Shown: positions 407 to 61,851 of the stretch, one piece after another | Layout: the number at the start of each line of letters is the position of its first letter | How positions within the stretch are numbered: position 1 is the first letter of the stretch | Virus record (IMG/VR): IMGVR_UViG_3300042673_001280 | Source of the DNA: a virus | Lineage: Duplodnaviria; Heunggongvirae; Uroviricota; Caudoviricetes | DNA length: 64,000 nt | Strand: one strand, 5' to 3' | Notes under the pieces: generated by a model | What the model was told of the DNA's origin: nothing | What the model saw: only the letters and a program-made list of their open reading frames with translations | The model's database searches: none | Position numbers and translations under genes: made by a program

Positions 407-410
407 TTAG

Positions 411-5604: not shown

Positions 5605-5611
5605 ATGTTAT

Positions 5612-5645: not shown

Positions 5646-5685
5646 CGTTAACATACATTTAATCTAATAAGAAAACTGTAATAGG

Positions 5686-18400: not shown

Positions 18401-21400
18401 ACTAACATACTTGTTATAAGTGTACTTGATAAAGTTAACCCGGGAATTTCAGCATTTGCTAATTCGATCGATTTCTCAATTCCTGCTTTAGTTAACCCTT
18501 GAAGCTCTCCAATTAACAAACTAGAAGATAGTCTTAAGAATGCTCTACCTGCATGTATTGCACGATAATTAGTACCTAATATCGCATCAGTAACTACTGC
18601 ATCAATTACATACCCTGCATCGCGTCGTGCCTTTACTTCATCGTACACTAAATTGTTTGATATTGGATTATACATATACGGCGTTGTAGTATCTAACGTT
18701 AACGTTACTGTTTGAGTAGCAGCATTAAATTCAACAATGTCGTCAATTTGATAACGCTTTCCTCTAACATAAAACGAACATGGCGGTTGTGGAGGTCTAA
18801 CATCAAGTCCGCTGCTTTGACCAAACACAATTTTACCAGACGGCGTACTATCTGCAACTGCACTTAATACCACTGTAGCATTAGTCGATGGCGCAACTGG
18901 TAACGTTACACTTACAACATATTGTCTACTTTCAAATCCAGTACCTGTAATTTTAACACCTGGTTTTAATCCAACAATGTTAACGATATTATTAACAACC
19001 ATAGTAGTTGATAATCGTCCGCCACTTACATATGTACCAACTGCACTAGTTGTACCTTGTACTTTAATTGTAAGACCTAAGTCAGTAATCTCTTTAATAG
19101 TGCCGTATACGCGACCTGCAAATCCGTCAATATATTGTCCACCTGCAAATCGTTTATAGTTGTTACTTTGTGAAAAACTAGAACATTCTTGAATGTACGG
19201 TGATTTAGTTTTAATGTTACCTTCTGGATCTAGAACCATTGCAAAGCCGCCTTGACCTTGGAACGTTACACCAATAATACGATTACCTTCATTACATAAG
19301 AATACGTCAATTTCTTTATTATTTTTAGCAGGACTTGTTACATCTAATGGATTAGTTAAATAATGACGTCCGTAGTTAATAGTGTCAAACAAGAACCAGT
19401 TGCCGGCTAGTTTAGTAAATGCAGTTTCAAACGGATAAATTACCGTACAGTTCATTGTGTTACCACTAACTGAATCAATAACTGCTTTTCCTCTTTTCTT
19501 ATTGCCACCAGCAGGTATAACATTATCAGTAAACACTTTACCTACCCAACTTAATAATGCTTGGTAATTATTACTTAACGTGATAATAATTTTACCACTA
19601 ACACCGTCAAGCGTAGCAGTAATACCTAAAGAGACTAACGGTGCCGAATTTGAAGCATAATCAATAAGACCTACTTCTAACGCATCAATAATTGCATCGC
19701 GATAGAAAAATACTCTACGCCACGGGCTTTGACTTTCTCTATCGATTGGACGAATAAGTGTTCTACGCATCTCGTCACCGCGAACTGAAACGTTTGCTGG
19801 AATTTTTAACGGAAAGTCTTCGTAATATATTCCGCTTTCTATAAATACTGAAAGATTTAAATCTCGTACTGTTTCACCAAATTCCAATTCTTCGCCTACT
19901 TTAAAGAAACCGGGTTTAGTTAATCGAACTTGTATTCTGTCTTTACCTGTTGATATTTCAGGTGTGTATTTTACAATGCTAGCATACGCCCCTGATGCAG
20001 TTAAATTAGTTGACACCCGGCCAACTCCGACAATTATCTTAGCAGGAAAAATATCATTGCTTTTTGGAGCACCTTGGTCAACATAACCCTTACCGCCGTT
20101 GTCAATATCAATATTCCAAATTGCAGTACCGTGCGACGGCGTGGCTGCAAAACTAACACCGTAACGGATTATGTCTAATACACTATCTAAACTATCAGTA
20201 AATATTGCAGTAGCTTCATCTGAAATTTCAGACAGATAGCTGCCAACTACTCCAATGCTACTTGATGGTAGTATTGCAGTTGATGAAAACGCAGTAAGCT
20301 GAGTTTCAGCTTGTTGGTATCGAACTGCTGTGTAACCTGTTAATACCTCTATACCTAAGTTTTTTGCAAATGCAATACCGTCAAAAGATTGAACATAATG
20401 TGTGCCAATTGCAACTGATTTCGCGCTTGAGTTTTTGTAAAAACTTTTACCTGCAGTTATTGATTGCCAGTTTCCACCGGTAATAATATCTATTGCGGCT
20501 GCATCAACTATTAGTCCAATATCGCGATAACATAACGATTCATCATAATTAAATCCACCGCCAAACGCAGTATTAACATAATCAATAGAGGTATTTTCAA
20601 TTACTTCGGCATTATTATTAATAATAACCTTTAAACTAATTGCATCAATGTATGTTCCACCAGTAAATATAGTGTCATCAACTGGGATACCCATATATAA
20701 GTCATTATCAATTGCAGTAGCTGCAGCTGTAAATTTTGTACCAATAAGGGTTGACGTTGCATTAGTATCATCGTCGTCGCTATGTCCGTTAACGATAGTT
20801 CTAGCGTATAACGAAGTTTTACTAATAACAGTTTTTGTAATAGCCGGCGTGCTAACTATTGTCATTTGATGTGCAGCTGCAACCGATGCTGCTGTCCCGC
20901 CGTACGTAATATCATAACATACTGAAATAATTAGTTTCCTTAAATCAACTGCTAATATAGCTAAAACATCTACGTCAGTGATACTTTCATCAATATCTAA
21001 ATATGAGTTAACATCATTAATAATACTAGTAATAGCAGCATTATCTAAACGATTACGTGCGTTACGAATCCAGCCATTTGGTAGCGGTTGTGTAGTGCCG
21101 CCAGTTACATATGAATTTACTTCAACATTAATATCTGGATATCTTGGTAACTCTGTCGGAAGTTCACCTGACTTAATTATTGTGTCAATTTCAACAAACA
21201 ACGCGTTAATTCTTTCTAAATAATTAGGATCGTTAATTACTGGGTAGAAGTGATCCATATACCATGATGCTGTAGTAGTAACATCTGAATTTGTGCCAAC
21301 AGTGTATATAGATTTATCTAATTCTAATGCTGTAAAAAATGTTATTAAATCAGGTGTCCCAGCAGCAGAATTTGGCAACTGGATAGCCGGAGTAGTATTA

Positions 21401-25895: not shown

Positions 25896-28208
25896 ATGTC
25901 ATTAACTGTCTGGAACAAACAATCTGGCCTGCTTGCAACTATCCAAGAAGGCAACGCTATTAATATTCAATTGCCGGCTAATCATCATAGCAATATTCAT
26001 TATGCTATTATTTCTGGTAAGTTACCACCAGGTACTTGGATTGATAAAAATTATATAAAAGGAACACCGTACGAAGTTTCAAGAGAAACTACTTTCTCAT
26101 TTTGCATCCGTGCGTCTCAACAAAATTATGGAATTTCAGATCGAACATTTTCACTAATAGTCAACGGGGCAGATGCTCCTGTTATTGTAACACCAACTGG
26201 ATTGCTTGATATTGGACCTAAAAAACAATTATATGTTATAGATAATACATTTGTTAACTATCAAATTCGTGCAATAGATTCTGATACTAGTACTGGTCAA
26301 AAACTAACCTACTATATAGATCCAGCGTACGGCATACTACCGCCTGGGTTATCTCTTACTAAAGATGGAATAATATACGGTGTAGTTGATGCAGTAACAT
26401 CGTTAACTCCAAATGACGGCACAGGTGCCTACGACAACGGTTTATTTGACGTTTCACCGTACGACTTTGCAAATATTCAACAACAAAATGGATTTGACGT
26501 ATATCCATACGACAAACCAGGTTACGATTTTACAATTACATTAAAACCTAAAAAACTAAACCGACATTATCGATTTAGAGTATTTGTAACTGATAGTGAG
26601 ACAGCAACACCTCCAAGTAGAGAATTTGAAATATTTGTAGTAACTGATTCATTTTTTAGAGCAGATGCAGACGCACTTATTTCTGATTTAAAACCGTTTA
26701 CTGCCGATGTAACGTATTTGTCGCAGCCAATCTGGATAACACAATCTAACTTAGGTATATATCGTGCAAATAATTATATTACGTTAATGTTAGATGTATA
26801 TGATACAGGATTAATATACTACACATTAGGAAATACTACTACTAGATGGGCCGCTAATACAGTGTATCTAGTGGACGATTTAATTTATGAAACTCCTAAA
26901 ATATCTTATATTTGTAGAGTTGCTCACACATCTGGAAGTTCATTAAATTTAGCTAACTGGGCAAGATACGGATTGCCGCCTGGCATGGAATTTGATGACA
27001 AAACCGGTGAAGTATTTGGTAAAGTGCCGGCCCAACCTGCAGTAACTACTACCTACACTTTTTCAGTAACTGCTACACGGCACGGCGATGAAGATACTAC
27101 TGAGATTGCAAAAACATTAAAAACATTTACTGTTAGTATTATTGGTGAGATCGAAAGTGCAATATCATGGGTAACGCCGTCCGAGTTAGGAACAATTGAT
27201 GCAGGATACGCATCGTCGTTGTTTGTTCGTGCAAATAGTAGTTACTACAATGCAGTTGTTACTCACACTATTATTGACGGTAACTTACCGCCCGGACTGT
27301 CGTTAATGAGCGACGGTGAGATTGTTGGAGTTATATCTCAATTCTCAACTTCAATTGCGTTTGATCGAAATACTACTACGTTTACATCTACAACATTTGA
27401 TCAAACTAATAAAACTTATGGGTTAACTACATTTTCAAACAACTATGCTAGTAAAACTAGAACTACGTTTGATAACAATACTACGTCATTTAATCGTAAA
27501 TTTACATTTACAGTTAAGGCATCTGACCAATCATACTATAGTGCAACTGAACGCACCTTTACTATAACTGTTAAAACTCCTAATTTAATTCCATACAGTA
27601 ATATTAGAGTACAACCGTTCCTTAGTCCTAATCATGTTACATTATGGAAAACATTTATTACCTCAAACGTTTTTAACATCGATGACATTTATAGACCGTA
27701 TGACCCTGCATTTGGAATTCAAGATAACCTATCAATGCTTATCTTTGAAGGTATTGAAACTCGCAGTTATGGATCATATATATTAGGGTTTAATCATAAA
27801 ACTAAACACTTTCGATTTGGTAATATTAAAAAAGCAGCTGCAATCTTACCTGGAACTAAAACTGCATTATACGAAGTAGTGTATATTGAAATGATTGAAA
27901 CAACATTATCTAATAGTGTTGAAGAGTGGAGATACGAGTTTAGCAGTATTAGCCAACCTAAGTACGACTTTTTGCCATTATGGATGCGCTCTGTTCAACC
28001 TACTTACAGAAAAGAATTAGGATTTATTTTAGCAGTACCAATCTGTTTCTGTAAAGTCGGCACTGCAGACAACATAATGTTAAAAATTAAATATAGCGAT
28101 TTTGATTTTAAACTCATTGATTACCAAATTGATCGATTCATAATCAATGCCGTAACAGGATCACATACCGATAAATATATAATATTCGATAACAAGGAAA
28201 CACAATGA
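25896..28208 (+). CDS. virion structural protein with cadherin/Ig-like (LPPGLSL...DG.I.G) repeats, probably baseplate or fibre associated
   Basis: Three copies of the LPPGLSLT/MSDGEIVGV-type putative-Ig-domain motif. Late promoter upstream. Confidence 0.5.
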   Translation: MSLTVWNKQSGLLATIQEGNAINIQLPANHHSNIHYAIISGKLPPGTWIDKNYIKGTPYEVSRETTFSFCIRASQQNYGISDRTFSLIVNGADAPVIVTPTGLLDIGPKKQLYVIDNTFVNYQIRAIDSDTSTGQKLTYYIDPAYGILPPGLSLTKDGIIYGVVDAVTSLTPNDGTGAYDNGLFDVSPYDFANIQQQNGFDVYPYDKPGYDFTITLKPKKLNRHYRFRVFVTDSETATPPSREFEIFVVTDSFFRADADALISDLKPFTADVTYLSQPIWITQSNLGIYRANNYITLMLDVYDTGLIYYTLGNTTTRWAANTVYLVDDLIYETPKISYICRVAHTSGSSLNLANWARYGLPPGMEFDDKTGEVFGKVPAQPAVTTTYTFSVTATRHGDEDTTEIAKTLKTFTVSIIGEIESAISWVTPSELGTIDAGYASSLFVRANSSYYNAVVTHTIIDGNLPPGLSLMSDGEIVGVISQFSTSIAFDRNTTTFTSTTFDQTNKTYGLTTFSNNYASKTRTTFDNNTTSFNRKFTFTVKASDQSYYSATERTFTITVKTPNLIPYSNIRVQPFLSPNHVTLWKTFITSNVFNIDDIYRPYDPAFGIQDNLSMLIFEGIETRSYGSYILGFNHKTKHFRFGNIKKAAAILPGTKTALYEVVYIEMIETTLSNSVEEWRYEFSSISQPKYDFLPLWMRSVQPTYRKELGFILAVPICFCKVGTADNIMLKIKYSDFDFKLIDYQIDRFIINAVTGSHTDKYIIFDNKETQ

Positions 28209-28831
28209 CCACAAAAATCAATACATCTACAATTGATGAAACTTTTCCAATACCAGGAGAGGACAACGATACTTCGGGATTTCGAACTAACTTTGAACAA
28301 ATTAACATTCAACTAAACCAAGCCGGCACTGAAATTACTGAATTGCAAAATTATGCCATGCTATCCGGCACAATTGATAATAACACTACCCCGGTTACTA
28401 ACAACTTACGCAGTAGTACTATAACTAACGGAACATACGCAAATTTTCACGGAGCAGTAGTTAGTCAAAATAACGAATCTGGATCAATTGAAATTAACGT
28501 CGCTAATGGTAATTTTCAAGCATTGCGATTATCAGTTGACGCTACCCTGTCTTTTACAAATTGGCCAAATCCAACGTATTATTCATCACGGTATGCAACT
28601 GTTAGAATACACTTAACTACTAGCCCAACGGCTCCTTCGACTGGTGTAACCATTCTTGGTTACACAAGTGCAGGCGTAATTAACGCAACTGGTAGATTTA
28701 AGTCTACTAATTTTCCAACTGTGCATATTAACCCCGGTTCAACTGTAGTTATTGACGCATGGAGCCACAACGGCGGCAATACCTTTTTTCTAAACTACAT
28801 AGGTGAATTTAATGCATCCCCTGGTTCTTAA
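28205..28831 (+). CDS. structural (fibre/baseplate-like) protein
   Basis: Start overlaps the upstream stop. Thr/Asn/Ser-rich beta-type composition. Confidence 0.4.
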   Translation: MTTKINTSTIDETFPIPGEDNDTSGFRTNFEQINIQLNQAGTEITELQNYAMLSGTIDNNTTPVTNNLRSSTITNGTYANFHGAVVSQNNESGSIEINVANGNFQALRLSVDATLSFTNWPNPTYYSSRYATVRIHLTTSPTAPSTGVTILGYTSAGVINATGRFKSTNFPTVHINPGSTVVIDAWSHNGGNTFFLNYIGEFNASPGS

Positions 28832-29584: not shown

Positions 29585-29929
29585 ATGAGTATTATACACA
29601 AAACAGCTAAAGGAAAACCAGTAGACATGAATAAACTGGTTACACAAAATGAACTTACTGTTGCAGTAAGTAATGTTAGAATTAATGCAAGAGGTGATGA
29701 GTTAGGACCAGGTGGTCAAATTATTCACAAAAACGTTGAACCTGTTCATACCGGAGTGCCTGTTCAGCAGCAATCAATCCGTGAAGTTGCTACCCCCGTT
29801 AAACCTGCAGCTCCTAAACCTGCAGCTCCTAAACCTACGTTTTCACCAGTAACTGATTCACCAAATGCACTGTTACAACCTGCACCTGAATCAAAAGACG
29901 CTGATAAACAACCTAAAGGTAAACAATGA
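29585..29929 (+). CDS. hypothetical protein with a Pro/Ala-rich (PAAPKPAAPKP) C-terminal half
   Basis: ORF with a GGAGAATAAAATG start context. Confidence 0.4.
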   Translation: MSIIHKTAKGKPVDMNKLVTQNELTVAVSNVRINARGDELGPGGQIIHKNVEPVHTGVPVQQQSIREVATPVKPAAPKPAAPKPTFSPVTDSPNALLQPAPESKDADKQPKGKQ

Positions 29930-30309
29930 TAGTTGACGGTACTTTAGATACTATTCATGATAACGTATTAATTACTGACATGAATTTTGATGAGCAAGTA
30001 ACTGCTGGCGGTATTATAGTCGGCAGCGATAATGGGAAAACAGAAGGTATTAAACCCCGATGGGGTAAAGTATACAAAGTAGGTCCTGATCAACACGATA
30101 TTACAATTGGTGATTGGATTTTAATAGAACACGGTCGATGGACTCGTGGTATTCAAATTAAAGACGATAACGGCAACGTTGTTACTGTTAGACGAGTAGA
30201 AACTAAGGCAATATTAGCAGTCTCAGATCATCAACCTACTGATATTAATCTAGGTAGATCAAACGCATCAACTGTACAAGAGTTTGACTTTAGTCAACCT
30301 ATGTACTAA
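29926..30309 (+). CDS. GroES-like co-chaperonin (T4 gp31-type)
   Basis: AGGIIVG ... GKVYKVG ... IGDWILI pattern of the Cpn10 fold with an extended mobile-loop region. Its start overlaps the preceding stop. Confidence 0.55.
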   Translation: MIVDGTLDTIHDNVLITDMNFDEQVTAGGIIVGSDNGKTEGIKPRWGKVYKVGPDQHDITIGDWILIEHGRWTRGIQIKDDNGNVVTVRRVETKAILAVSDHQPTDINLGRSNASTVQEFDFSQPMY

Positions 30310-30317: not shown

Positions 30318-30359
30318 AGTAATGGAGAACTTGACATTCTCCATTACTTACTATATAAT
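30318..30359 (+). promoter_or_regulatory. 11-bp inverted repeat (agtaatggaga / tctccattact) overlapping a perfect sigma70 promoter (TTGACA 30331-36, 17-nt spacer, TATAAT 30354-59)
   Basis: The -35 hexamer lies in the loop of the hairpin. Position suits both a terminator after the GroES-like gene and an operator/promoter for the clamp-loader gene. Confidence 0.6.
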
Positions 30360-39414: not shown

Positions 39415-39424
39415 TCAAAATATT

Positions 39425-39453
39425 GACAGGTCAGGCATTGTATAGTATAATTA
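39425..39453 (+). promoter_or_regulatory. consensus sigma70 promoter (TTGACA-17-TATAAT) for the J-domain gene
   Basis: Exact hexamers with a 17-nt spacer. Lies inside the ORF-track start of the next gene, arguing for the later ATG. Confidence 0.65.
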
Positions 39454-39488
39454 CTATACAAACTGACCTTTTTTATGAGAAATTAACC

Positions 39489-40313
39489 ATGACAGACTTT
39501 TATTCAAAATTAGGTGTGTCCCAAGACGCATCACAAGACGATATTAAAAAAGCATATCGTTCATTAGCAAACCGCCATCATCCCGATAAAGGAGGTGACC
39601 AAGCTGCATTTAAAGATATTTCTGTAGCATACGATACTCTAAGTGATCCGCAAAAACGTGCAGAGTATGATAATCAACAACACGGACATCAGTTTGGGGG
39701 TGGACAACATTTCCATTTTGATATGAATGACATATTTGGACAACACGCACATTTTACTAATATGTTTGGAAATGGATTTAGACAACAACAACGCAACAAA
39801 GATTTAAACTTACAAGTACAAGTAACCCTTGTTGAATCTTTTAAAGGTAAACAAGTAGATGCATCATTTACATTGCCTAGTGGAAAACCGCAAACTGTTT
39901 CTATTAATGTACCAGCTGGCATTGATCACGGTGACACTATACGATACCAAGGATTAGGTGACGATTCTATTCCAAATATTGCTCGTGGAAATCTTAATGT
40001 AACAATTCACGTTATTCCGGATTATATATTTAGACGTGAAGGAAATGACGTGTTTGCTACATTAGAAATTAATCCAATTGAGGCAATGCTTGGCTGTATT
40101 AAATCGGTTAAAACTATTACTGGTGAAATAAAAAATGTAAGTATTAGAGCCGGAGTTGAAACTGGCACACACTATGCTTCTGGACCGGGATTTACTAATT
40201 TACATAGTAAACAAACTGGACAATTTATTTCAGTTATTAAAATTAAAGTTCCTACAATTACTGATCCTGCACTAATTGCACAATTACAAGCAATAAACAG
40301 TCAATTAAATTGA
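39489..40313 (+). CDS. DnaJ-like J-domain co-chaperone (J domain plus Gly/Phe-like linker plus C-terminal beta domain; no zinc-finger CxxCxGxG repeats)
   Basis: DFYSKLGVSQDASQDDIKKAYRSLANRHHPDKGG with the HPD motif. Start placed at the Met after the promoter (ORF track gives 39423). Confidence 0.8.
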   Translation: MTDFYSKLGVSQDASQDDIKKAYRSLANRHHPDKGGDQAAFKDISVAYDTLSDPQKRAEYDNQQHGHQFGGGQHFHFDMNDIFGQHAHFTNMFGNGFRQQQRNKDLNLQVQVTLVESFKGKQVDASFTLPSGKPQTVSINVPAGIDHGDTIRYQGLGDDSIPNIARGNLNVTIHVIPDYIFRREGNDVFATLEINPIEAMLGCIKSVKTITGEIKNVSIRAGVETGTHYASGPGFTNLHSKQTGQFISVIKIKVPTITDPALIAQLQAINSQLN

Positions 40314-40338
40314 CTTTTATGTAAAATAGTGTATAATA
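40311..40338 (+). promoter_or_regulatory. sigma70-like promoter (TTGACT-16-TATAAT) for the ClpA-like gene
   Basis: Overlaps the J-domain gene stop. Confidence 0.45.
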
Positions 40339-40369
40339 TAACTTTACTTAACAACTACAAGGAACTACT

Positions 40370-42670
40370 ATGGTCGAACCAAGCGAAAAACTACAAGCAA
40401 TTTTTGACAAAGCTATTGCCGCAGCAAAAAACATGCATCATGAGTATGTAACACTTGAGCACGTATTGTTTTCAATGCTCATGGAAGATGAAGGATTTAC
40501 AAGTTCTTTACAGCATTTTGGTGCCGACACTACATTTTTAAAGAATACTGTACTAGATCATTTACAAACAAAATGTCAAGAAATTACTACAGTTGACGTA
40601 GTAGTTAAACCTAAAAAAACTCAAGCTGTAGAACGCTCTTTAAATAGAGCGTTTACACAAGTGTTGTTTAACGGTGGCAATCGTATCGAACCAGCTGATT
40701 TTTTCTTAGCAATGCTAGGCGAGAAACGGTCATGGGCGTTTTATTATGTTGCACAGGTAAACATCACTAAAGAAAAGTATGCCGAGTATATACAAAATGT
40801 TACATCTGACGATGATGATGCAACAACAAGTTCAGTTAAACCTGGCTCACAAACACACAAAGCATTACAGGCGTACACTACTAATTTAAACGAAGAAGTT
40901 AAAAATAACAAGATTGACCCAGTTATTGGTCGTGTAGACGAATTAGAACATATTGCGCTTGCGTTAGGACGTCGTAGTAAAAACAACGTTATTATGGTAG
41001 GTGATCCGGGTGTAGGTAAAACTGCAATTGCCGAAGGTCTTGCATATAACATTGTTAACGGTTCGGTTCCTGAATTTTTAATAGATTACACTGTTTACAA
41101 TTTAGATATTGCTGCTATGTTGGCAGGTTCTAAATACAGAGGCGACTTTGAAGAACGATTTAAACAAGTAATTAAGTCGTTACAGAAACTTGGTAAATGT
41201 GTACTATTCATTGACGAGGCCCATATGATTAGTGGTGCAGGTGCATCTGGTAATTCTTCTAATGATTTAGCTAATATGATGAAGCCTGCACTTAGTAAAG
41301 GTAACATTAAAGTTATTGCAAGTACTACATGGGACGAATACCGTAAACACTTTGAAAAAGATCGTGCGTTAATGCGTAGATTCCAACGTATTACAGTTGA
41401 CGAACCTACACAAGAAATGACTTTACAAATTCTTAAAGGTATTAAGAAGTACTACGAAGGTCATCACAAACTTAAAATTAAGGACGAAGCATTACAAGCG
41501 TCAATTAAATTATCTGTAAAATATCAAGCAGATAAAAAATTACCCGATAAAGCTATTGACTTAATTGATTGTGCTTGCTCACGGTTTAACTTAAAACTTG
41601 CAGATCAACGTGTAGTTACAGAAGCTGATATTCAGTTTGAATTAGCTAAAATGGTTAACATGCCAGTTGAACAGATCATGCAAACTGAAACTAGTTCGCT
41701 AATTACATTGCAAGAAAAACTTGAAGCTGAAGTATTTGGTCAAGATACTGCATTAACTGAAATTGTTGACAAAATTATGGTTGCACAAGCAGGATTAAAA
41801 CCAGAAAACAAACCAATTGGTAGCTTTGTGTTTATGGGACCAACAGGGTGTGGTAAAACTGAAACAGCTAAAGCACTTGCTAAACATTTAAATACTAAAT
41901 TGTTACGTTTTGATATGTCAGAATATCAAGAGAAACACAGTATTAGCAAACTAATTGGCAGTCCTCCAGGTTATGTAGGTTTTGAAGACAATGCAGGTTT
42001 GTTGATTACACAAATTCAAGAAAATCCAAATGCGGTATTGTTATTTGATGAGATTGAAAAATCACATCCTGATGTATCTACAGTGTTGTTACAAATGATG
42101 GACAACGGCTTTATTACAGGCTCAAATGGTAAACAAGCTGATTGCCGCCATATTGTATTAATTCTAACTACTAATGCCGGTGCGCAATCTGCAGAAAAAA
42201 ATCAAATTGGGTTTGGCTCTCAAGAAAAAGACTATTCAGATACTGATCTTAAGAAGTTTTTATCGCCTGAGTTCCGCAACAGACTAGATGGTGTTATTAC
42301 GTTTAATAAGTTAGGAAAAGACACTATGGTTAAAGTTGTAAACAAGTTTATTGACGAAGTGCGTGAACAAGTTAAAGAAAAAGGCATTAAGATCAAAATT
42401 GATAAAGCTGCAACTAATTGGTTGTTAGACAACGGATTTGATGCTAAAATGGGTGCTAGACCATTACATCGCATTATTGATAAAGAGATCAAACGTGATC
42501 TTGCTAAAATGATGTTGTTTGGTGATCTTAAATTAGGAGGATGGTTAACAGTAACAGTTGCAGATGATAAAATTGTACTTGTTTCTAAACCTAAAGCACT
42601 TAAAGTACCGTTACTTACTACAAAAGAAGTGTTAACATCAGACAACTTGTTTATTGAAGATGCTGATTAA
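40370..42670 (+). CDS. clpA: ClpA-type double-AAA+ unfoldase (ATP-dependent Clp protease ATP-binding subunit)
   Basis: Clp N-domain. Two Walker A boxes (GDPGVGKTAIAEGLA and GPTGCGKTETAKALA). No ClpB middle coiled-coil domain. QIGFGS loop aligned with the ClpP-docking IGL/IGF loop of ClpA. Confidence 0.85.
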   Translation: MVEPSEKLQAIFDKAIAAAKNMHHEYVTLEHVLFSMLMEDEGFTSSLQHFGADTTFLKNTVLDHLQTKCQEITTVDVVVKPKKTQAVERSLNRAFTQVLFNGGNRIEPADFFLAMLGEKRSWAFYYVAQVNITKEKYAEYIQNVTSDDDDATTSSVKPGSQTHKALQAYTTNLNEEVKNNKIDPVIGRVDELEHIALALGRRSKNNVIMVGDPGVGKTAIAEGLAYNIVNGSVPEFLIDYTVYNLDIAAMLAGSKYRGDFEERFKQVIKSLQKLGKCVLFIDEAHMISGAGASGNSSNDLANMMKPALSKGNIKVIASTTWDEYRKHFEKDRALMRRFQRITVDEPTQEMTLQILKGIKKYYEGHHKLKIKDEALQASIKLSVKYQADKKLPDKAIDLIDCACSRFNLKLADQRVVTEADIQFELAKMVNMPVEQIMQTETSSLITLQEKLEAEVFGQDTALTEIVDKIMVAQAGLKPENKPIGSFVFMGPTGCGKTETAKALAKHLNTKLLRFDMSEYQEKHSISKLIGSPPGYVGFEDNAGLLITQIQENPNAVLLFDEIEKSHPDVSTVLLQMMDNGFITGSNGKQADCRHIVLILTTNAGAQSAEKNQIGFGSQEKDYSDTDLKKFLSPEFRNRLDGVITFNKLGKDTMVKVVNKFIDEVREQVKEKGIKIKIDKAATNWLLDNGFDAKMGARPLHRIIDKEIKRDLAKMMLFGDLKLGGWLTVTVADDKIVLVSKPKALKVPLLTTKEVLTSDNLFIEDAD

Positions 42671-43265
42671 GACTACTAAAAAGTTATATAAAGGCAAATA
42701 CCAGTACAATATTGTGCTGGTATGCGCATTTTCTGTTGTGTTTAGAGGAAATGATCTTAATGTTACTGCTCGTAAAATTGACAATGAAGAAAAATTAGTA
42801 GACACAAAATGGGCGTGGAAAAATCCATTAGAGTTTGCGTATGCTAAAGAACTTTACAATATGCTAATTACCATGGACGATTTTTCCATTAGAGTTGAAT
42901 CTCCAACTATTACATGTTATACTAACAACTACAGTGATATTATTGCATTAAGAGAAATAGACATTTCAAAAGTTCGTAGAATTAGTGTTCCAATGGTTAC
43001 ATTAACTGAAGACTCTGTATACATGCCAGAGATAGATTACGAGTTTCGTGTTACTATCGGAGGCACTAAACACCAATATTTAGATTTTTTAGAATGGGCA
43101 GATGCTATTGACAAATTACGAATTACTAATAGCTGTAGAGAAATGTTATCACAACGCAGTAGTTATGGCGGGGGTCACTTTTATGTAAATGGTGAAAACA
43201 TGTTATTAATGTGTAGGATGCAATTAGCTGGTATAAATCTTACAGTCCACCGTATAGTACATTAA
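42654..43265 (+). CDS. hypothetical protein, translationally coupled to the ClpA-like gene (17-nt overlap)
   Basis: ORF only. Confidence 0.35.
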   Translation: MKMLIKTTKKLYKGKYQYNIVLVCAFSVVFRGNDLNVTARKIDNEEKLVDTKWAWKNPLEFAYAKELYNMLITMDDFSIRVESPTITCYTNNYSDIIALREIDISKVRRISVPMVTLTEDSVYMPEIDYEFRVTIGGTKHQYLDFLEWADAIDKLRITNSCREMLSQRSSYGGGHFYVNGENMLLMCRMQLAGINLTVHRIVH

Positions 43266-43297: not shown

Positions 43298-43672
43298 ATG
43301 CGTATCACAGATTTATTAGAAAATGCTCACTTTAAAAGTGAAGAATTTGTTAAACAAACTGACGACGGTAACGAGATTGATTTTGATCTAACCGAGGATT
43401 TAGTTTTCTTTTTAAACAACAATGACGATGCATATCGCCGTCACCTGTTGCCCGCAGTACATAAGTTTATTGATACACAAAAAGCAGGCAATGAACCCAA
43501 ATATACTATTTTTAAAACTGCAGTTGCAGATGGTTATAAACAATACACTCAGCAATATCCAATGCGTGAATTGCCGGATGAAATAGATAAGAAAACTTGG
43601 AAAACAACTTGTAAAAATTTGTTTGATCAAATTTCTAAAGATATGGAAGACGGTCATTACGATCACACTTAA
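43298..43672 (+). CDS. hypothetical acidic protein
   Basis: ORF behind the late promoter. Confidence 0.4.
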   Translation: MRITDLLENAHFKSEEFVKQTDDGNEIDFDLTEDLVFFLNNNDDAYRRHLLPAVHKFIDTQKAGNEPKYTIFKTAVADGYKQYTQQYPMRELPDEIDKKTWKTTCKNLFDQISKDMEDGHYDHT

Positions 43673-43696: not shown

Positions 43697-45397
43697 ATGG
43701 CAGGAATAGCACACCCTGAAGATCTTATCATTACTGAAGGATCTAACGGTGCCCTTCAAGCAGTTAATGAATTAACTAATCTTTCAACATTAACTATTAA
43801 ATGGGACGGCTTTCCTGCAATAGTTTTTGGTCGAGATAAAAATGGAACATTAGTGCTTGTTGATAAGCACATGTTTAAACAAGTTGCTAACGGCAATCTT
43901 GAATTTACTTCAATTAGAGAATACGATTTAACCCGTAATATAAATCGTAACGACTTATGGGATAAAGAAGACATTCTCCGTCCTGCATTAGACAAAATAA
44001 TTCCAAATATAACTGACACTTACTACATGGGCGATTTGCTATGGGTTAATACCCCTGTTAGTGTTGGAGATTCATATGTTTTTAAACCAAATACTGTCAA
44101 ATATCATGTTGATCACAATAGTGAGTTAGGTAAATCAATTGCTAATAGTGTTGGGGGTATTGCAGTACATACGTTTATTCCAGGGTTAACTGCAGAAGAC
44201 GAACCAATTAATGGTTTTGATGTGTTTGCAGAGTGTAAAGACATTACGTTTATTGCAACTGAGATGAAACAGCCAAATATTGTTATAAACACTGCATTAT
44301 TAAACGCTGTACAAACTACAATTGCTACATATTCCAGCGATGTAGACGCTGTTATTGCTAAATTAACTGAGTTAAAATGTAAAAGTGTAATTACTGCAAT
44401 GGGACCGTTTATTACTAGTATGATTAACAGTGAAGATCTATCTACTAACATTGTTCCAAGATTTATTGATTTTTTTACGCTAAGACTTACAAAACCTGCT
44501 CACGCTAAACTGTTTTTACCAAATGGAAAACTACGTAACGACATTTACACTGGTATTAATGGTTTATGGAGTATATGGAGTGCAATTTCTAATCTCAAAT
44601 TAGACATTAAACGTCAAATTGATGAACAACAACTGCACAGTGCAGTGCAACCTGTAATAAATAGTATTATAAGTCACGAAGGCTATGTATGCGGCAGCGG
44701 TATTAACAAAATAAAAATTATAAATCGGTTAGAATTTAGCCGTGCTAACTTTTCCAAATACAATGTAACTGCAGAGGAAATTGCCGCAAAAAGTAACATG
44801 CCAATGGCAACTTTTTGTTTTGGTAGAATGAATCCTCCAACAGTTGGACATAAAAGAGTTATACAACAAACAGTAGCACTTGGAAAAGAACATGCATATA
44901 TTTTTGCAAGTAATAAACATGATCCTAAAAGTGACCCATTAGAGTACGACGTTAAAACTGAATTTATTAAAAAAATTCATCCTGATTATTCTAACTTTAT
45001 GGTAACCGAATATGTTAGAGATCCATGGCAAGCTGCATGTTGGTTATATGATAGAGGTTATAGACACATGACATTTGTTGCAGGCAGTGATAGACTAGGT
45101 AATAGTACTAGAAGTTTAGAAACTGCACTTAACAATTGGAATAGTGGTCCATCTCGCACTTCTGATTATGCTCGCGGACCAAATGGTAGAGAACATGTAG
45201 TATTAAAATTTGTTAGTAGTGGAGATCGCACAGATGAAACTAATAACGCTAGCAGTACATTAGCACGTGAATACGCTAAAATAGGTGACAAGATTAATTT
45301 CCAACTAATAACTGGTGTAAGTGAAGATATTACAGTATGTGGTAAAACCTTATATGAAGCTACTAGGGAGGGAATGAATGTACAACGGAATGAATAA
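43697..45397 (+). CDS. two-domain nucleotidyltransferase: N-terminal ligase-like KxDG domain fused to a C-terminal NMN/NaMN-adenylyltransferase-like (HxGH ... ISST) domain
   Basis: TIKWDG (motif I-like) and VFKPNTVKY in the first half. FGRMNPPTVGH plus ASSTLAR, characteristic of the cytidylyl/adenylyltransferase superfamily, in the second half. Confidence 0.45.
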   Translation: MAGIAHPEDLIITEGSNGALQAVNELTNLSTLTIKWDGFPAIVFGRDKNGTLVLVDKHMFKQVANGNLEFTSIREYDLTRNINRNDLWDKEDILRPALDKIIPNITDTYYMGDLLWVNTPVSVGDSYVFKPNTVKYHVDHNSELGKSIANSVGGIAVHTFIPGLTAEDEPINGFDVFAECKDITFIATEMKQPNIVINTALLNAVQTTIATYSSDVDAVIAKLTELKCKSVITAMGPFITSMINSEDLSTNIVPRFIDFFTLRLTKPAHAKLFLPNGKLRNDIYTGINGLWSIWSAISNLKLDIKRQIDEQQLHSAVQPVINSIISHEGYVCGSGINKIKIINRLEFSRANFSKYNVTAEEIAAKSNMPMATFCFGRMNPPTVGHKRVIQQTVALGKEHAYIFASNKHDPKSDPLEYDVKTEFIKKIHPDYSNFMVTEYVRDPWQAACWLYDRGYRHMTFVAGSDRLGNSTRSLETALNNWNSGPSRTSDYARGPNGREHVVLKFVSSGDRTDETNNASSTLAREYAKIGDKINFQLITGVSEDITVCGKTLYEATREGMNVQRNE

Positions 45398-51633: not shown

Positions 51634-51662
51634 TTGACACACTGAACAAACGAATATATAAT
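51634..51662 (+). promoter_or_regulatory. consensus sigma70 promoter (TTGACA-17-TATAAT)
   Basis: Exact hexamers. Precedes the ATG at 51694. Confidence 0.65.
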
Positions 51663-52207: not shown

Positions 52208-54867
52208 GTTATGTAGATGCTTACTTTGATCGTGATAACGATGTTATTAAAATTGTAGAAAGAAATTCAAAAGGTGAACGGGAATACAAAGATATTGCCG
52301 TTAAACACACATTATATTATACAGACCCGAAAGGGAAATATCAATCAATTTACGGAGACCCCGTATCAAAAGTAATTTGTAACAATACAAAAGAGTTCCG
52401 CAAAGAACTTTCAATACACGGTAATAAAAAGCTGTTTGAAGCAGATATTAATCCAATTTTTAAATGCTTATCAGATAACTATCTTAATCACGACGCGCCT
52501 AAATTAAATATTGCGTTTTATGATATTGAGGTTGATTTCGATCCAGAACGCGGGTATGCATCACCCGATGATGCGTTTATGCCTATTACTGCTATTGCAG
52601 TGTATTTACAATGGTTAGATACTCTTATTTGTTTAGCAATACCTCCAAAGACATTAACTATGGATCAAGCTAAAGAACAAATTAGAGATATTCCAAATAC
52701 TATTCTTTTTAACACAGAAGCAGAGATGTTAGATACATTTTTAACACTGCTTGAAGATGCTGATATTATTAGCGGCTGGAATAGTGAAGGATTTGATATA
52801 CCATACACTGTAAATCGTGTTACAAAAGTTCTATCAAAAGATGATACACGCAGATTTTGCTTGTTTAATCAATTACCAAAAAGACGTGAATATGAAAAGT
52901 ACGGCAAAGCTGCAGTAACATACGACTTTGTAGGACGTGTGCATTTAGATAGTTTACAATTATATCAAAAGTACACATATGAAGAAAGACATAGTTTTAG
53001 ACTTGATGCTATTGCTGAATATGAGTTAGGTGATCGTAAAACACAGTACGAAGGTACGCTTGATCAGTTATACAACAATGACTTTAGAACGTTTATTGAG
53101 TACAACCGTCAAGATACTATGCTATTACACAGACTTGATACAAAATTAAAGTTTATTGACCTAGCTAATACACTTGCACACGAGAACACTGTATTACTAC
53201 AAACTACTATGGGTGCGGTTGCTGTAACAGAACAAGCAATTATTAACGAATCACATCACAGAGGGTTTGTTGTACCTAACAGAAAAGGTAAAGCAGAACC
53301 AATTCAAGCTGCAGGCGCGTATGTTGCGTATCCTAAAGAAGGAATTCATGACTGGATTGGCTCGCTAGATATTAACTCTCTGTATCCAAGTGCCATTAGA
53401 GCATTAAATATGGGTCCGGAGACTATTGTAGGACAACTAAGACCAATCGTAACTGACGAATACATAGGCTTACAACTAGCTAAAGGTAAATCGTTTGCTT
53501 CTGCATGGGAAGGTTTGTTCGGTACACTTGAATATACGTCTGTTATGAATGAAGAAATAGGTACTGATATTACAATTGACTGGGAAAATGGCGATACTGA
53601 TATATTAAGTGCTGCTGAAGTATACAGATTGATATTTGAAAGTAATCAGCCATGGGTTATGTCAGCTAATGGAACTATCTTTTCATATGAAACAGAAGGT
53701 ATTATTCCTGGATTACTAAAGCGATGGTATGCAGAACGTAAGGATATGCAGAAAAAGCTAAAAGAAGCTATTAATGCAGGTAATAAGATTGAAGAAGAAT
53801 ACTGGGATAAACGTCAGCTGGTTAAGAAGATTAACCTAAATAGTTTATATGGTGCTATTCTTAATCCTGGATGTAGGTTCTTTGATAAACGTATTGGGCA
53901 ATCAACTACGTTAACTGGTAGACAAATTGCTAAACACATGGCAGCTAAAGTAAATGAGATTATAACCGGCGAATACAATCACACAGGTAAGTCTATTATT
54001 TACGGTGACACTGACTCTTGTTACTTTTCAGCGTATCCTACACTTAAACGTGAAATAGATAATGGTAGTTTACCATGGTCTAAGGAAACTGTTGTTCAAT
54101 TATATGATCAAATTAGTGATCAAGTTAATGGTACATTTCAACAGTTCATGCTTGATGCATTTCATTGCCCTAAATCGCGTGGTGAAGTAATTAAAGCTGG
54201 TCGTGAGATTGTTGGTAGTAAGAGCTTATTCATTACTAAAAAACGTTATGCAGTACTAGTATACGATAAGGAAGGTAAACGTAAGGATACACTTGGTAAA
54301 AACGGTGAAATTAAAGCTATGGGCTTAGACTTAAAGCGTAGTGATACACCTGAATTTATTCAAGACTTCTTATCACAAGTATTAGAAATGGTATTAGGTG
54401 GTGATACTGAACAGCATGTACTAGATTACATCAGTAAGTTTAGGATATCGTTTAAAGCTAGACCAGGTTGGGAAAAAGGTTCGCCTAAACGCGCTAATAG
54501 CATTACGTCTTATTTAGAAAAAGAAGCTAAACAAGGCAAAGTTAATATGCCCGGACATGTTAGAGCAAGTTTAAACTGGAATACACTAAAACGTATGTAT
54601 GATGACAAGTATTCAATGTCTATTACAGACGGTGCAAAGGTAATTGTATGTAAACTTAAACAAAACCCATTAGGGTTTACAAGTGTTGCGTACCCAGTAG
54701 ATGAATTACGCTTACCACAATGGTTTAAAAACCTACCATTTGATCATAATGGAATGGAAGATACTATTATTGATAACAAACTTGATAACTTGATTGGCAT
54801 TTTGAACTGGAAGTTAGCTGATACGTCAGATAGAAACACATTTAACAGTTTATTTGAATTTGAATAA
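52204..54867 (+). CDS. family-B DNA polymerase (T4 gp43-type replicase)
   Basis: Exo I FYDIEVD. Motif A DINSLYPSAI, motif B KINLNSLYGAIL, motif C YGDTDS. Confidence 0.9.
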   Translation: MSYVDAYFDRDNDVIKIVERNSKGEREYKDIAVKHTLYYTDPKGKYQSIYGDPVSKVICNNTKEFRKELSIHGNKKLFEADINPIFKCLSDNYLNHDAPKLNIAFYDIEVDFDPERGYASPDDAFMPITAIAVYLQWLDTLICLAIPPKTLTMDQAKEQIRDIPNTILFNTEAEMLDTFLTLLEDADIISGWNSEGFDIPYTVNRVTKVLSKDDTRRFCLFNQLPKRREYEKYGKAAVTYDFVGRVHLDSLQLYQKYTYEERHSFRLDAIAEYELGDRKTQYEGTLDQLYNNDFRTFIEYNRQDTMLLHRLDTKLKFIDLANTLAHENTVLLQTTMGAVAVTEQAIINESHHRGFVVPNRKGKAEPIQAAGAYVAYPKEGIHDWIGSLDINSLYPSAIRALNMGPETIVGQLRPIVTDEYIGLQLAKGKSFASAWEGLFGTLEYTSVMNEEIGTDITIDWENGDTDILSAAEVYRLIFESNQPWVMSANGTIFSYETEGIIPGLLKRWYAERKDMQKKLKEAINAGNKIEEEYWDKRQLVKKINLNSLYGAILNPGCRFFDKRIGQSTTLTGRQIAKHMAAKVNEIITGEYNHTGKSIIYGDTDSCYFSAYPTLKREIDNGSLPWSKETVVQLYDQISDQVNGTFQQFMLDAFHCPKSRGEVIKAGREIVGSKSLFITKKRYAVLVYDKEGKRKDTLGKNGEIKAMGLDLKRSDTPEFIQDFLSQVLEMVLGGDTEQHVLDYISKFRISFKARPGWEKGSPKRANSITSYLEKEAKQGKVNMPGHVRASLNWNTLKRMYDDKYSMSITDGAKVIVCKLKQNPLGFTSVAYPVDELRLPQWFKNLPFDHNGMEDTIIDNKLDNLIGILNWKLADTSDRNTFNSLFEFE

Positions 54868-54875
54868 ACTACTTA

Positions 54876-54904
54876 TTGACAAATTGATACAAATATAATA
54901 TAAT
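54876..54904 (+). promoter_or_regulatory. consensus sigma70 promoter (TTGACA-17-TATAAT) for the operon containing dpdA
   Basis: Exact hexamers. AGGAG SD and ATG at 54926 follow. Confidence 0.65.
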
Positions 54905-54925
54905 ATATAAAACTAGGAGATATAC

Positions 54926-55663
54926 ATGAAAGACTTTTTACAAGATTTAGTAGCACATACACATACATTAACCGTTTTACCATTAGTTAAAGTAACTGCA
55001 ACTGCAGAAAATGCAGTGATTGAATCAGTAGCAGAAGATAGATCAGTAATGCTGTACGCAACTACACATACGCCAGTTAATGGTCTCGAACCATGCATCT
55101 TTGGTATGCCAAATTTAAACAAATTAGACTTACATCTTAAATGTCCAGAATATAAAACTGATGCAACTATTAAAGTTGTACAAGAAACTAGAGATGGTGT
55201 AAAAATCCCAACAGGGTTACACTTTACTAATGCAACTGGTGATTATGAAAATGATTATAGATTTATGAATGAAGAAATCGTTAGTGCAAAAGTAAAAAGA
55301 CCAAAACTTAAAGTAGAAATAGTGTATGATTTAGATTTTATTCCAACAGGTGTAAGTATTCAAAGATTAAAACATCAAGCTGCTGCACATACTGAAGAAA
55401 CTGTATTTCAACTAGTAACAGTTGATAACGACTTAGTATTTAGATTCGGTGATGCTAGTACACACGCAGGCTCATTTGTATTCCATCATAACATTAATAC
55501 TACATTAAAAAATACATGGTCATGGCCAATTACTCCAATTTTAAGTATTTTAAACTTAAATGGTAACTTAACTATGAAAGTTTCAGATCAAGGTTCGTTA
55601 CAAATTATAGTTGACAGTGGTATTGCAGTTTATAACTACACTATTCCAGCATATACAAAATAA
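54926..55663 (+). CDS. hypothetical protein (first gene of the dpdA operon)
   Basis: ORF only. Confidence 0.4.
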   Translation: MKDFLQDLVAHTHTLTVLPLVKVTATAENAVIESVAEDRSVMLYATTHTPVNGLEPCIFGMPNLNKLDLHLKCPEYKTDATIKVVQETRDGVKIPTGLHFTNATGDYENDYRFMNEEIVSAKVKRPKLKVEIVYDLDFIPTGVSIQRLKHQAAAHTEETVFQLVTVDNDLVFRFGDASTHAGSFVFHHNINTTLKNTWSWPITPILSILNLNGNLTMKVSDQGSLQIIVDSGIAVYNYTIPAYTK

Positions 55664-56079
55664 TGATAGACATTAGAAAAGCATTAAAATTATTAGATAT
55701 CATATATGTAAACGACAACGAGAGCATTAAATCGTCAGTTGATAAACTAACAATGTTAGCGCAATTAGATATGCCATCTTATGCTATGCCAGGACCGTTT
55801 GAACAGTTTTATGTTGATTACGAATACATGAAACAACGTGTGCAAGGACTTGAATCGAGATTAACCACACTTGAAGATTATAATCGAAACCCATATACAA
55901 ATTACACTGTTAATTCGCATATAGTTGGCCATGTTACTACAAGTCCGCAGTTTGTAAGTGCATTTAACAGAATTACACAATTAGAAACTGAATTACAAGT
56001 TACTAAAACGTTACTTAGTAAGTTATTAACCCCAGAACAGGAAGAAGATGAATCGGAACTTAACAGCAACACAGAATGA
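55663..56079 (+). CDS. hypothetical coiled-coil protein
   Basis: ORF only. Confidence 0.35.
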   Translation: MIDIRKALKLLDIIYVNDNESIKSSVDKLTMLAQLDMPSYAMPGPFEQFYVDYEYMKQRVQGLESRLTTLEDYNRNPYTNYTVNSHIVGHVTTSPQFVSAFNRITQLETELQVTKTLLSKLLTPEQEEDESELNSNTE

Positions 56080-57943
56080 TTATGCTGTATTCCTACCAGC
56101 AACGTCGGGTTTTTACTCAACGTTTGTCGGAAAACAACGTTACGGCAATTATGTTGAACCTTCACGTATTCCTGCATCATTTAAAGCAGGCGTAGAAGGT
56201 CTTAATTACTTAGAACCAGAAAAAGGTGAATTTTATTACAGATGGTGTTTGTATTCAGCAGGGCATGCAAACTTAGACTTGACTAAGCCTGACGAAAGCG
56301 AAGACATGTTTCGTAATAGAGATAGAAGCACTAGTTGGGTATTAGGTGACTCGGGCGGTTTCCAGATTGGTAAAGGCGTATGGGAAGGCGAATGGAGAGA
56401 TCCTAACAGTGCAATAGTACAAACAACCATGGCTGATTGCATTGCTAAAGGTATTGAAACTGTTCCTGTACTTGACTCAACAGGAAACCCAGTAGTTAAC
56501 AAAAAAGGTGTTCCTAAAACTACTAAAATTGATCACGTTAAACTATATCAAGCTCGGTTAGATGCTGCTCAAAAGAAAAGAGAGCAAGTATTAGCATGGA
56601 TGGATACGTTAATGGATTACGGAATGGTACTTGATATTCCGGCATGGGTCGAACGAAGTCCTGCAGGTAAACTTGCAACTGGTATTACAAGTTATGACGA
56701 AGCAGTTGATGCTACAATTTATAACAATGAATACTTTATGAAACACCGCAATGGTAACTGTAAATTCTTAAACGTATTACAAGGTGAAACCCATACACAA
56801 GCTGACGATTGGTATAGTAAGATGAAAGACTTTTGTGATCCTGCTATATATCCAGATACACACTTTAACGGGTGGTCAATGGGTGGTCAAAATATGTGTG
56901 ATGCCGAACTAGTACTTAAACGTGTAGTAACATTAAAATTTGACAACTTGTTACAAGAAGGCAAACATGATTGGATGCATTTCTTAGGAACCAGTAAATT
57001 AGAATGGGCATGCTTTTTAACTGATGTACAACGTGCAGTGCGTAAATATGTTAATCCAAAATTTACTATTAGTTATGATTGTGCTAGTCCGTTTTTAGCT
57101 ACTGCAAATGGACAGGTGTATATTACTACTGAATTAGACGATAGATCTAAATGGGTATATCGAATGGTGCCAAGCGTTGACGATAAAAAATATGCACAGG
57201 ATTCTAGACTATTTAAAGATGCAGTAATACAAGATGGTATTTTTAGTGTGTTTGATCCAAGTCCATTAATTGATCAAGTAGCAATTAAAGACGTGTGTAT
57301 ATACGGTCACGGTGTTCCTAATTGGACAGAAGTTAATAACGATAATGTTGATCATGCTAACCTATTTACAGATCCAAAATATTTAAATGATCCTAAATAC
57401 TGGATAACATTAGGCGATGCAAATAAAATTAACAAGATTGGTAAAACTAGTTGGGATAGTTTTAGCTATGCTATTTTAATGGGGCATAATGTGTGGAGTC
57501 ACGTTAATGCTGTACAAAAAGCAAATGAAGCTTACGACAACGGTATAATTCCTCGAATGTTAATAGGCGAAAAAACTCAACCGTATGTTGTTAGAGATAT
57601 TATTGACCGGATTATTGCGTGTGATGATAGAACCGTTGCTATTAAGATGATTGAAGATCTTGAAAAGATATGGATGGCTATTCCGGGCACTAGAGGTAAC
57701 ACTGGCAAAAACATAGTTAACAACGAAACTACTACTACTACTAATTATGTAGCCGAATCAATTATTACAGAAAAAGTTGAAAAAATTAGAAAAGTGTTAT
57801 TAACAGATCTTACATCACAAGTTAACAACTTATTTGATTTTGATGACAATATTACAGAAGAAGTAGAATCCGATGACTATGAGTTTTCTGAAGAAGACGA
57901 ACTTACCTTATCTAACCTAGAAGATAGCATTAAACATGAATAG
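56048..57943 (+). CDS. dpdA: tRNA-guanine-transglycosylase-family DNA 7-deazaguanine transglycosylase (DpdA-like) with a ~240-aa acidic C-terminal extension
   Basis: LGDSGGFQIG aligns with the TGT catalytic-Asp block (TDSGGFQ). YDCASPFLATANGQVY aligns with the second catalytic block (MFDCVLPTR.ARNG). No CxCxxC...H zinc site, as is usual for phage DpdA. Confidence 0.7.
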   Translation: MNRNLTATQNDYAVFLPATSGFYSTFVGKQRYGNYVEPSRIPASFKAGVEGLNYLEPEKGEFYYRWCLYSAGHANLDLTKPDESEDMFRNRDRSTSWVLGDSGGFQIGKGVWEGEWRDPNSAIVQTTMADCIAKGIETVPVLDSTGNPVVNKKGVPKTTKIDHVKLYQARLDAAQKKREQVLAWMDTLMDYGMVLDIPAWVERSPAGKLATGITSYDEAVDATIYNNEYFMKHRNGNCKFLNVLQGETHTQADDWYSKMKDFCDPAIYPDTHFNGWSMGGQNMCDAELVLKRVVTLKFDNLLQEGKHDWMHFLGTSKLEWACFLTDVQRAVRKYVNPKFTISYDCASPFLATANGQVYITTELDDRSKWVYRMVPSVDDKKYAQDSRLFKDAVIQDGIFSVFDPSPLIDQVAIKDVCIYGHGVPNWTEVNNDNVDHANLFTDPKYLNDPKYWITLGDANKINKIGKTSWDSFSYAILMGHNVWSHVNAVQKANEAYDNGIIPRMLIGEKTQPYVVRDIIDRIIACDDRTVAIKMIEDLEKIWMAIPGTRGNTGKNIVNNETTTTTNYVAESIITEKVEKIRKVLLTDLTSQVNNLFDFDDNITEEVESDDYEFSEEDELTLSNLEDSIKHE

Positions 57944-61695: not shown

Positions 61696-61839
61696 AGAAG
61701 AACTACAAGAAAAGATTTTACAAGTAAAACGTGATATTTCTAAACATAGCGATTCAAGTAATCCACGTATATTATTAGGCCTTCAAGAATATGTAAATTA
61801 TTTAGAAGACGAATTAAAAACATTGACAAATAAACAGTA
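61678..61839 (+). CDS. candidate 53-aa coiled-coil micro-protein (MTDLTKEELQEKILQVKRDISKH ...)
   Basis: GGAAG SD 6 nt before the ATG. Fills an otherwise empty 180-bp gap. Its 3' end carries the -35 of the folE promoter. Confidence 0.3.
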
Positions 61840-61851
61840 GTGTTGTATAAT
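61823..61851 (+). promoter_or_regulatory. consensus sigma70 promoter (TTGACA-17-TATAAT) for folE
   Basis: Exact hexamers 27 nt upstream of the folE ATG. Confidence 0.65.

Follow-up and report, generated by a model that had tools for sequence, protein, structure and literature searches.

A DnaJ–ClpA gene pair and a separately encoded ClpP point to a probable self-contained ClpAP protease in a jumbo pmoC-phage lineage

Introduction

A phage genome fragment that encodes a ClpA-type unfoldase and shows no gene for the peptidase ClpP raises the question of what the unfoldase docks onto. Such a fragment is the 64,000-nucleotide (nt) stretch of IMG/VR virus record IMGVR_UViG_3300042673_001280 (Caudoviricetes), called the window throughout, in which a gene for a J-domain protein is followed by one for a ClpA-class ATPase and by a small coupled open reading frame (ORF). 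An original prediction, made from the window sequence, held that the phage ATPase feeds host ClpP, and so redirects host proteolysis, because no phage ClpP was in sight. That idea loses its basis because the phage carries a clpP gene of its own, which lies 819–1406 nt upstream of window base 1 in every related contig that spans the junction. We consider a self-contained phage ClpAP protease, acting within the proteostasis gene set of a jumbo pmoC-phage, to be the most likely machine and a probable one.

Results

A phage clpP gene just upstream of the window

ClpP is indeed missing from the window itself, as first noted: tblastn with an E. coli ClpP query returned nothing at E ≤ 10. A 208-amino-acid (aa) ORF at 28205–28831 was considered as a divergent ClpP and ruled out, having neither a Pfam nor a tblastn match. 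A first IMG/VR scan, seeded with ClpPs of PA5oct, Atu_ph07, Phosso and E. coli, gave 80 loci, none of them on contigs then tied to the ClpA lineage. Several of these loci had neighbors homologous to window genes, notably a 401-aa protein (3494–4699) and the DNA ligase, so a further scan was run with the 401-aa protein. This located contig L181, which is 98.07% identical to window positions 303–7877 and has a 195-aa ClpP ORF at 3918–4505, upstream of the ligase; window base 1 corresponds to L181 position 5324, which places clpP at the distance given above.

The encoded protein matches Pfam CLP_protease (PF00574) at 254.5 bits and, compared along its whole length, shares 60% identity with E. coli ClpP. 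Its GQACSMG, MIHQP and ERDCF segments align to the Ser, His and Asp motifs, and the triad is intact. Unlike E. coli ClpP it has no propeptide, and starts where mature E. coli ClpP does. The ClpPs of the 80 loci from the first scan (L101–L180) form a large jumbo-phage family, 70–99% mutually identical, with a 10-residue insertion past the catalytic His ('MIHRVSSGTxGTxGSVHVQEL') that PA5oct ClpP also carries. ClpP of the window lineage has no such insertion and resembles bacterial ClpP.

The exact phage ClpP protein occurs on 43 contigs. Eight ClpP contigs were inspected, coming from seven samples and from JGI, ENA, NCBI and Logan assemblies. Seven of the eight are 89–98% identical to the window start and share the gene order IF-1, phosphatase, helix-turn-helix protein, ClpP, pmoC, a variable endonuclease ORF and ligase, the last corresponding to window 469–1827; the pmoC end in the window is the landmark from which the place of clpP is read. 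In L266, the remaining contig, the sequence stops within pmoC, and megablast gives no match to the window. The search for a phage-encoded ClpP that had been proposed as a check on the original prediction came out positive, an outcome that the prediction itself had named as refuting it, with ClpP on the same 355-kb contig as DnaJ, ClpA and the downstream protein p201: JGI contig Ga0453714_0000003 (355,155 bp) encodes ClpP at 13,798–14,385, DnaJ at 53,783–54,616, ClpA at 54,675–56,969 and p201 at 56,959–57,564. The four genes share one strand, and ~41 kb separates clpP from clpA. A 76%-identical ClpA likewise occurs together with ClpP on the 98-kb IMG/VR contig 3300012667_000244.

Host contamination of the contig was rejected as the source of ClpP, since independent assemblies show the gene again and again with the same phage neighbors and with the phage type of promoter; a perfect TTGACA-N17-TATAAT site lies upstream of clpP in L181, L261 and L263. 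Just upstream of clpP, L261 also encodes an IF-1 homologue (8208–8426), a parvulin-type peptidyl-prolyl isomerase (2561–2836) and a DUF2828/TROVE-like protein (3428–4840).

A ClpA-type unfoldase with intact motifs

The clpA gene (40370–42670, + strand) encodes a 766-aa Hsp100 protein with an N-domain and two AAA+ modules, D1 and D2. The N-terminal region matches Clp_N (Pfam PF02861, 33.6 bits, cut-off 20.7) at residues 17–65, and the protein can be aligned with E. coli ClpA from residue 4. The NCBIfam ClpA model TIGR02639 matches in one stretch at 852.9 bits, covering residues 5–729 (model of 734 positions). The coiled-coil M-domain separates ClpB, ClpC and ClpV from ClpA, and here it is absent: the ClpA model runs unbroken, whereas each of the ClpB, ClpV, ClpK and ClpG models splits into two matches, with the M-domain skipped in the case of ClpB and ClpV. 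This bears out the initial assignment to the ClpA class. Among solved structures, E. coli ClpA (1ksf, E = 2.8e-194) matches best, and PHROG 4871, 'ATP-dependent protease', matches over the full length at 818.7 bits. The scores fall below the equivalog cut-offs (852.9 vs 993.15 bits for TIGR02639 and 711.8 vs 1350 for PRK11034), and by this measure the protein is a divergent phage branch of ClpA type, not a bacterial equivalog.

The motifs GDPGVGKT, LFIDEAH, KYRGDFE, RALMRRFQ, GPTGCGKT, LLFDEIEK, GYVGF, EFRNRLD and GARPL all align and are intact, so that Walker A and B, the arginine fingers, the sensor and both the KYR and GYVG pore loops are kept. On the + strand, D1 has its Walker A at 41000–41023, KYR pore loop at 41132–41152 and Walker B at 41204–41224; the corresponding D2 elements are at 41837–41860 (Walker A), 41969–41983 (GYVG pore loop) and 42038–42061 (Walker B). 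Judged by its motifs, the protein is a complete double-ring unfoldase with intact catalytic sites.

An invariant ClpP-docking tripeptide

The claim of an IGL/IGF-like loop holds on careful alignment, and the alternative of a ClpB- or ClpV-type protein was not borne out. In the 1ksf alignment the window segment 'aeknqIGFgsqekdys' stands opposite 'terksIGLihqdnstd' of E. coli ClpA, which places the tripeptide IGF (residues 613–615; 42206–42214, +) of the predicted ClpP-docking loop on IGL 617–619. IGF is invariant in 86/86 metagenomic ClpA relatives (L001–L086), across which DnaJ falls to ~50% identity and p201 to ~27–40%. Other phages also keep the loop; the tripeptide is IGF in Atu_ph07, PA5oct and Phosso, VGF in XaC1, IGV in Vibrio phage 2.275.O and LGL in E. 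coli phage A4. Invariance amid diverging neighbors, together with retention of the loop in other jumbo phages, argues for selection for ClpP docking, and we infer that ClpA physically docks on ClpP via its IGF loops.

The J-protein

The gene directly ahead of clpA (39489–40313, +) encodes a 274-aa protein that, as first described, has an HPD motif and no zinc finger: its Pfam matches are DnaJ (1.6e-21) and DnaJ_C (2.5e-27), with no match to the zinc-finger domain. The HPD motif is at residues 31–33 (nt 39579–39587) and is followed by a G/F-rich linker and the DnaJ_C substrate-binding domains. A longer ORF of 296 aa begins at TTG 39423, but the 274-aa ATG version is taken as correct because that TTG belongs to the −35 hexamer of a perfect promoter. 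The only NCBIfam models that match in a single stretch near full length are zinc-finger-less DnaJ and CbpA-type ones, all far below cut-off; the CbpA equivalog PRK10266 scores 118.5 bits against a cut-off of 403, which leaves the protein outside that equivalog. The closest solved structures are those of Thermus DnaJ2 (6psi/4j80) and the CbpA-like 3lz8. Given the HPD J-domain, the G/F stretch, DnaJ_C, the zinc-finger-less matches and the single Cys, the protein is by its sequence features a class-B (type II) J-domain co-chaperone.

In distant relatives (ClpA 75–79% identical) dnaJ and clpA are separated by a gene for peptide deformylase, at L040:9520–10008 and in 34 other loci. The same insertion is found in Sinorhizobium phage Phosso and is absent from the window and its close relatives.

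Promoters

A perfect sigma-70-type promoter, TTGACA-N17-TATAAT, lies at 39423–39451 (+), 38 nt upstream of the DnaJ start codon, and is kept in most related loci. A near-consensus one, TTGACT-N16-TATAAT, lies at 40310–40337 (+), 33 nt upstream of the ClpA start codon; nearly all related loci have an 11/12 or 12/12 site at this position. The + strand of the window has seven perfect TTGACA-N17-TATAAT sites (411–439, 2365–2393, 30331–30359, 39423–39451, 51634–51662, 54876–54904 and 61823–61851), against an estimated ~0.03 expected from base composition, and most stand 22–40 nt ahead of start codons of replication-type genes. This suggests that a large set of early genes is read by the host sigma-70 RNA polymerase. 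From the promoter sequences we likewise infer early transcription by that polymerase at the locus itself, early expression being predicted by the consensus sites at clpP, dnaJ and clpA.

Cpn10 and other chaperone or Clp partners

The GroES-like gene reported at 29926–30309 (+) was confirmed as a 127-aa Cpn10 (GroES/T4 gp31-type co-chaperonin; Pfam PF00166, 30.1 bits, cut-off 21.1), with PHROG matches 931 'head morphogenesis' and 3188 'co-chaperonin GroES'. The matches that identify the J-protein, ClpA and Cpn10 all far exceed chance expectation. The order Cpn10, clamp-loader-like AAA, PhoH (on the − strand), DnaJ, ClpA is identical to that of PA5oct. By tblastn the window has no ClpS, no clpS was found adjoining clpA, and the ~95 kb of lineage DNA examined yielded neither DnaK nor ClpS nor ClpX. 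An IMG/VR scan for ClpS gave >566 loci, none on contigs tied to the window lineage. Because no Hsp70 gene was found in the lineage DNA examined, the J-protein most likely recruits host DnaK.

The genes behind clpA

The ORF that follows clpA, p201 (42660–43265, +), has 201 aa from the ATG chosen by the gene caller, which overlaps the clpA stop by 11 nt; the alternative start TTG 42654 gives 203 aa. The original prediction had read this 203-aa ORF as translationally coupled to clpA and as a possible adaptor. The overlap stands in the window, but family, fold and conservation of the overlap lend the adaptor idea no support. No family match was found in Pfam, NCBIfam or PHROG. A first AlphaFold2 model from 19 sequences was poor (predicted local distance difference test, pLDDT, 58), and only after 35–47% identical homologues were added was a usable one obtained, with 28 homologues, pLDDT 90.3 and tandem ferredoxin-like alpha/beta modules; this model has no likeness to ClpS, in family or fold, or to any other solved fold.

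A role for p201, and perhaps for p124 (124 aa, 43298–43672, +), which always follows it in relatives, as a lineage-specific adaptor or regulator of phage ClpA nevertheless draws on its position directly downstream of clpA in ~75/80 IMG/VR loci, on the 11-nt overlap and on its fast evolution. Set against these, five loci (L062, L064, L067, L074 and the end-truncated L254) lack p201, the overlap turns into a gap of ~5–40 nt in many distant relatives, with a short overlap retained in some, and PA5oct and Atu_ph07 carry unrelated genes at this position. With no ClpS-like, family or fold similarity to add, we rate such a role as doubtful. Directly after p124 comes a 566-aa DUF6267 + cytidylyltransferase-like fusion (43697–45397, +), which close relatives keep and which diverges strongly in distant ones.

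The phage lineage and its genome

The element is a phage, as first supposed. Its genes are those of a T4-like or jumbo myovirus, among them genes for a gp44-type clamp loader, PolB, Phage_DsbA, Imm, PhoH, a holin-like protein, GH19, ThyX, a MoxR-vWA pair and giant fn3 proteins. IMG/VR scans and protein look-up found related contigs reaching 372,173, 372,016, 355,155 and 345,369 bp; the phage genome is therefore ~355–372 kb, of which the ~64-kb window is less than one fifth. Relatives of the window ClpA are encoded by 477 IMG/VR stretches, the best 80 of which are 75–100% identical to it. An identical ClpA protein is encoded by many metagenomic contigs, including one that matches window 30370–52670 at 100% identity. 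No near-identical DNA was found in the INPHARED phage collection.

The window opens inside pmoC, whose last 80 codons occupy 2–244 (+). The full PmoC ORF of relatives has as its best match, at 456 bits, the PmoC subunit of particulate methane monooxygenase in PDB entry 6cxh, which we take to be the Methylotuvimicrobium enzyme. This 3' end places the window phage among the large freshwater pmoC-phages; the host is probably a gammaproteobacterial methanotroph. In kind the phage goes with PA5oct and Atu_ph07 ('group 2.2'). Large freshwater pmoC-phages were described by Chen et al. 2020 (PMC7674155), who likewise reported fragmented phage pmoC. In related strains the pmoC 3' end is interrupted at two different sites (L263:10895–11560; around 10895–12150 in L261 and L262) by ORFs whose domains are of the GIY-YIG/NUMOD3 or DUF7487 zinc-finger type, and pmoC of the window itself is uninterrupted.

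Two giant ORFs with fn3/Ig-type repeats lie on the − strand at 5686–11730 (2014 aa) and 12415–23922 (3835 aa). The 2014-aa protein is only ~60% identical in L181, although that contig is elsewhere 98% identical to the window, and its gene is hypervariable and probably codes for a fiber or adhesin. About 5–7 kb past the window end, a relative (L094:15118–17466) encodes a MoxR-type AAA+ ATPase paired with a DUF2201 (vWA/metallopeptidase) protein, and such MoxR-vWA chaperone pairs are typical of group 2.2 jumbo phages according to Iyer et al. (PMC7824862).

Discussion

A self-contained ClpAP protease and its rivals

In the preferred reading, the DnaJ–ClpA region would belong to a set of proteostasis genes that a ~355–372-kb jumbo pmoC-phage expresses early. 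The IGF loops of ClpA would dock onto a ClpP tetradecamer supplied by the phage itself, from the gene ~41 kb upstream of clpA, while the class-B J-protein would most likely recruit host DnaK and Cpn10 most likely host GroEL. Candidate tasks are quality control while phage proteins are made and assembled in bulk, removal of host proteins, or both.

Several points weigh against this reading. No contig 100% identical to the window and spanning its base 1 was found, either with an exact 72-nt pattern in IMG/VR and JGI metagenomes or by look-ups of the ligase and PRA-PH proteins, so that clpP of the window's own molecule is deduced from relatives that are 89–98% identical. Assemblies probably break at the window start because different endonuclease-type ORFs are inserted in the pmoC 3' end of each strain. 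Going by these relatives, the window's own molecule almost certainly carries clpP. The phage ClpP also differs from E. coli ClpP at two positions, Y60S and F112K, which we take to be docking-pocket residues, and these differences may bear on its partner specificity. Moreover, ClpA might bind host ClpP, either in addition to the phage ClpP or in its place, or might work by itself.

Docking mainly on host ClpP, which would redirect host proteolysis, for example against defense proteins, fits the conserved IGF loop and the lack of clpP inside the window, and with 60% identity between phage and E. coli ClpP, mixed phage/host assemblies are conceivable. On the other hand, the phage has a clpP, preceded by its own consensus promoter, ~1 kb before the window start, and one 355-kb contig holds both this gene and clpA. 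In addition, every annotated phage examined that has the DnaJ–ClpA pair also encodes ClpP. We therefore find the host-directed variant unlikely.

A more specialized version would have ClpA, ClpP and the J-protein, separately promoted and early, form a dedicated degradation system aimed at host defense or regulatory proteins, with p201 and p124, which evolve fast, as lineage-specific specificity factors and with the conserved DnaJ(-peptide deformylase)-ClpA linkage reflecting a functional hand-off from Hsp70/J-protein to the ClpA-type protease. Taken together, this is a speculative proposal to which we give little credence; we know of no description of such a hand-off in bacteria.

Least probable, in our estimation, is that ClpA is a ClpP-independent unfoldase, translocase or assembly chaperone working with DnaJ, host DnaK and Cpn10, phage ClpP serving host or phage ClpX or virion maturation instead: clpA does adjoin chaperone genes and not clpP, PHROG labels ClpP-like proteins 'head maturation protease', and Iyer et al. 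(PMC7824862) proposed translocase or virion-assembly roles for jumbo phages, but the phage ClpP is a full-length, orthologue-grade match and not a divergent prohead protease, and strict invariance of IGF, while other genes of relatives drop to 27–60% identity, argues for ClpP docking.

The self-contained ClpAP reading has a wider bearing. A very abundant freshwater pmoC-phage lineage joins the jumbo phages that have their own ClpA, ClpP, J-protein and Cpn10, and the strict conservation of IGF argues that the phage ClpA works as a protease component, beyond the assembly chaperone role suggested in the literature. To our knowledge no phage ClpAP has been characterized biochemically; the system would be testable by heterologous expression, and it would not represent a new class of mechanism.

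Comparison with known systems

Relative to E. coli ClpAP (1ksf, 6w1z), the window ClpA has the same architecture and all catalytic and pore-loop motifs; it differs in being phage-encoded and in scoring 853 bits against the NCBIfam equivalog cut-off of 993. The J-protein shares with E. coli CbpA, Thermus DnaJ2 and the J-protein Rki of phage RB43 (cited in PMC12619734) the HPD J-domain, the G/F linker, the C-terminal substrate-binding domains and the absence of a zinc finger, but lies far under the CbpA equivalog cut-off (118 vs 403 bits).

Among jumbo phages, PA5oct, Atu_ph07 and Phosso each have a DnaJ gene directly upstream of clpA, the Phosso pair being separated by the peptide deformylase gene, and each encodes a true ClpP elsewhere that is 46–64% identical to E. 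coli ClpP. PA5oct (DnaJ EST35_0297, ClpA EST35_0298, ClpP EST35_0272) resembles the window lineage in gene order, in the IGF of ClpA and in a ClpP encoded apart, 13 kb upstream. It differs in that its ClpA is just 40.9% identical, a different gene follows clpA, its ClpP has the insertion past the catalytic His that window-lineage ClpP does without, and ClpX, ClpS, Hsp20 and FtsH are encoded nearby, none of which was seen in the lineage DNA examined here. Atu_ph07 (ClpA gp292, DnaJ gp293, ClpP gp676) likewise has DnaJ just upstream of ClpA on the same strand, an IGF loop and its own canonical ClpP at a distant place in the genome; its ClpA is 38.5% identical, its genome is 490 kb, its host is alphaproteobacterial, and it has more Clp paralogues (ClpS, ClpX, ClpB).

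The adjacency of ClpA and DnaJ with a separate ClpP has been described for Atu_ph07 (PMC6102473), ClpA, ClpP, ClpS, ClpX and DnaJ have been catalogued in group 2.2 jumbo phages (PMC7824862), and freshwater 'moraphages' have ClpA among their core genes (PMC12619734). The papers on pmoC-phages and amoC-phages make no mention of Clp genes. The DnaJ–ClpA–ClpP kit is already known from other giant phages and is newly pointed out here in the pmoC-phage lineage.

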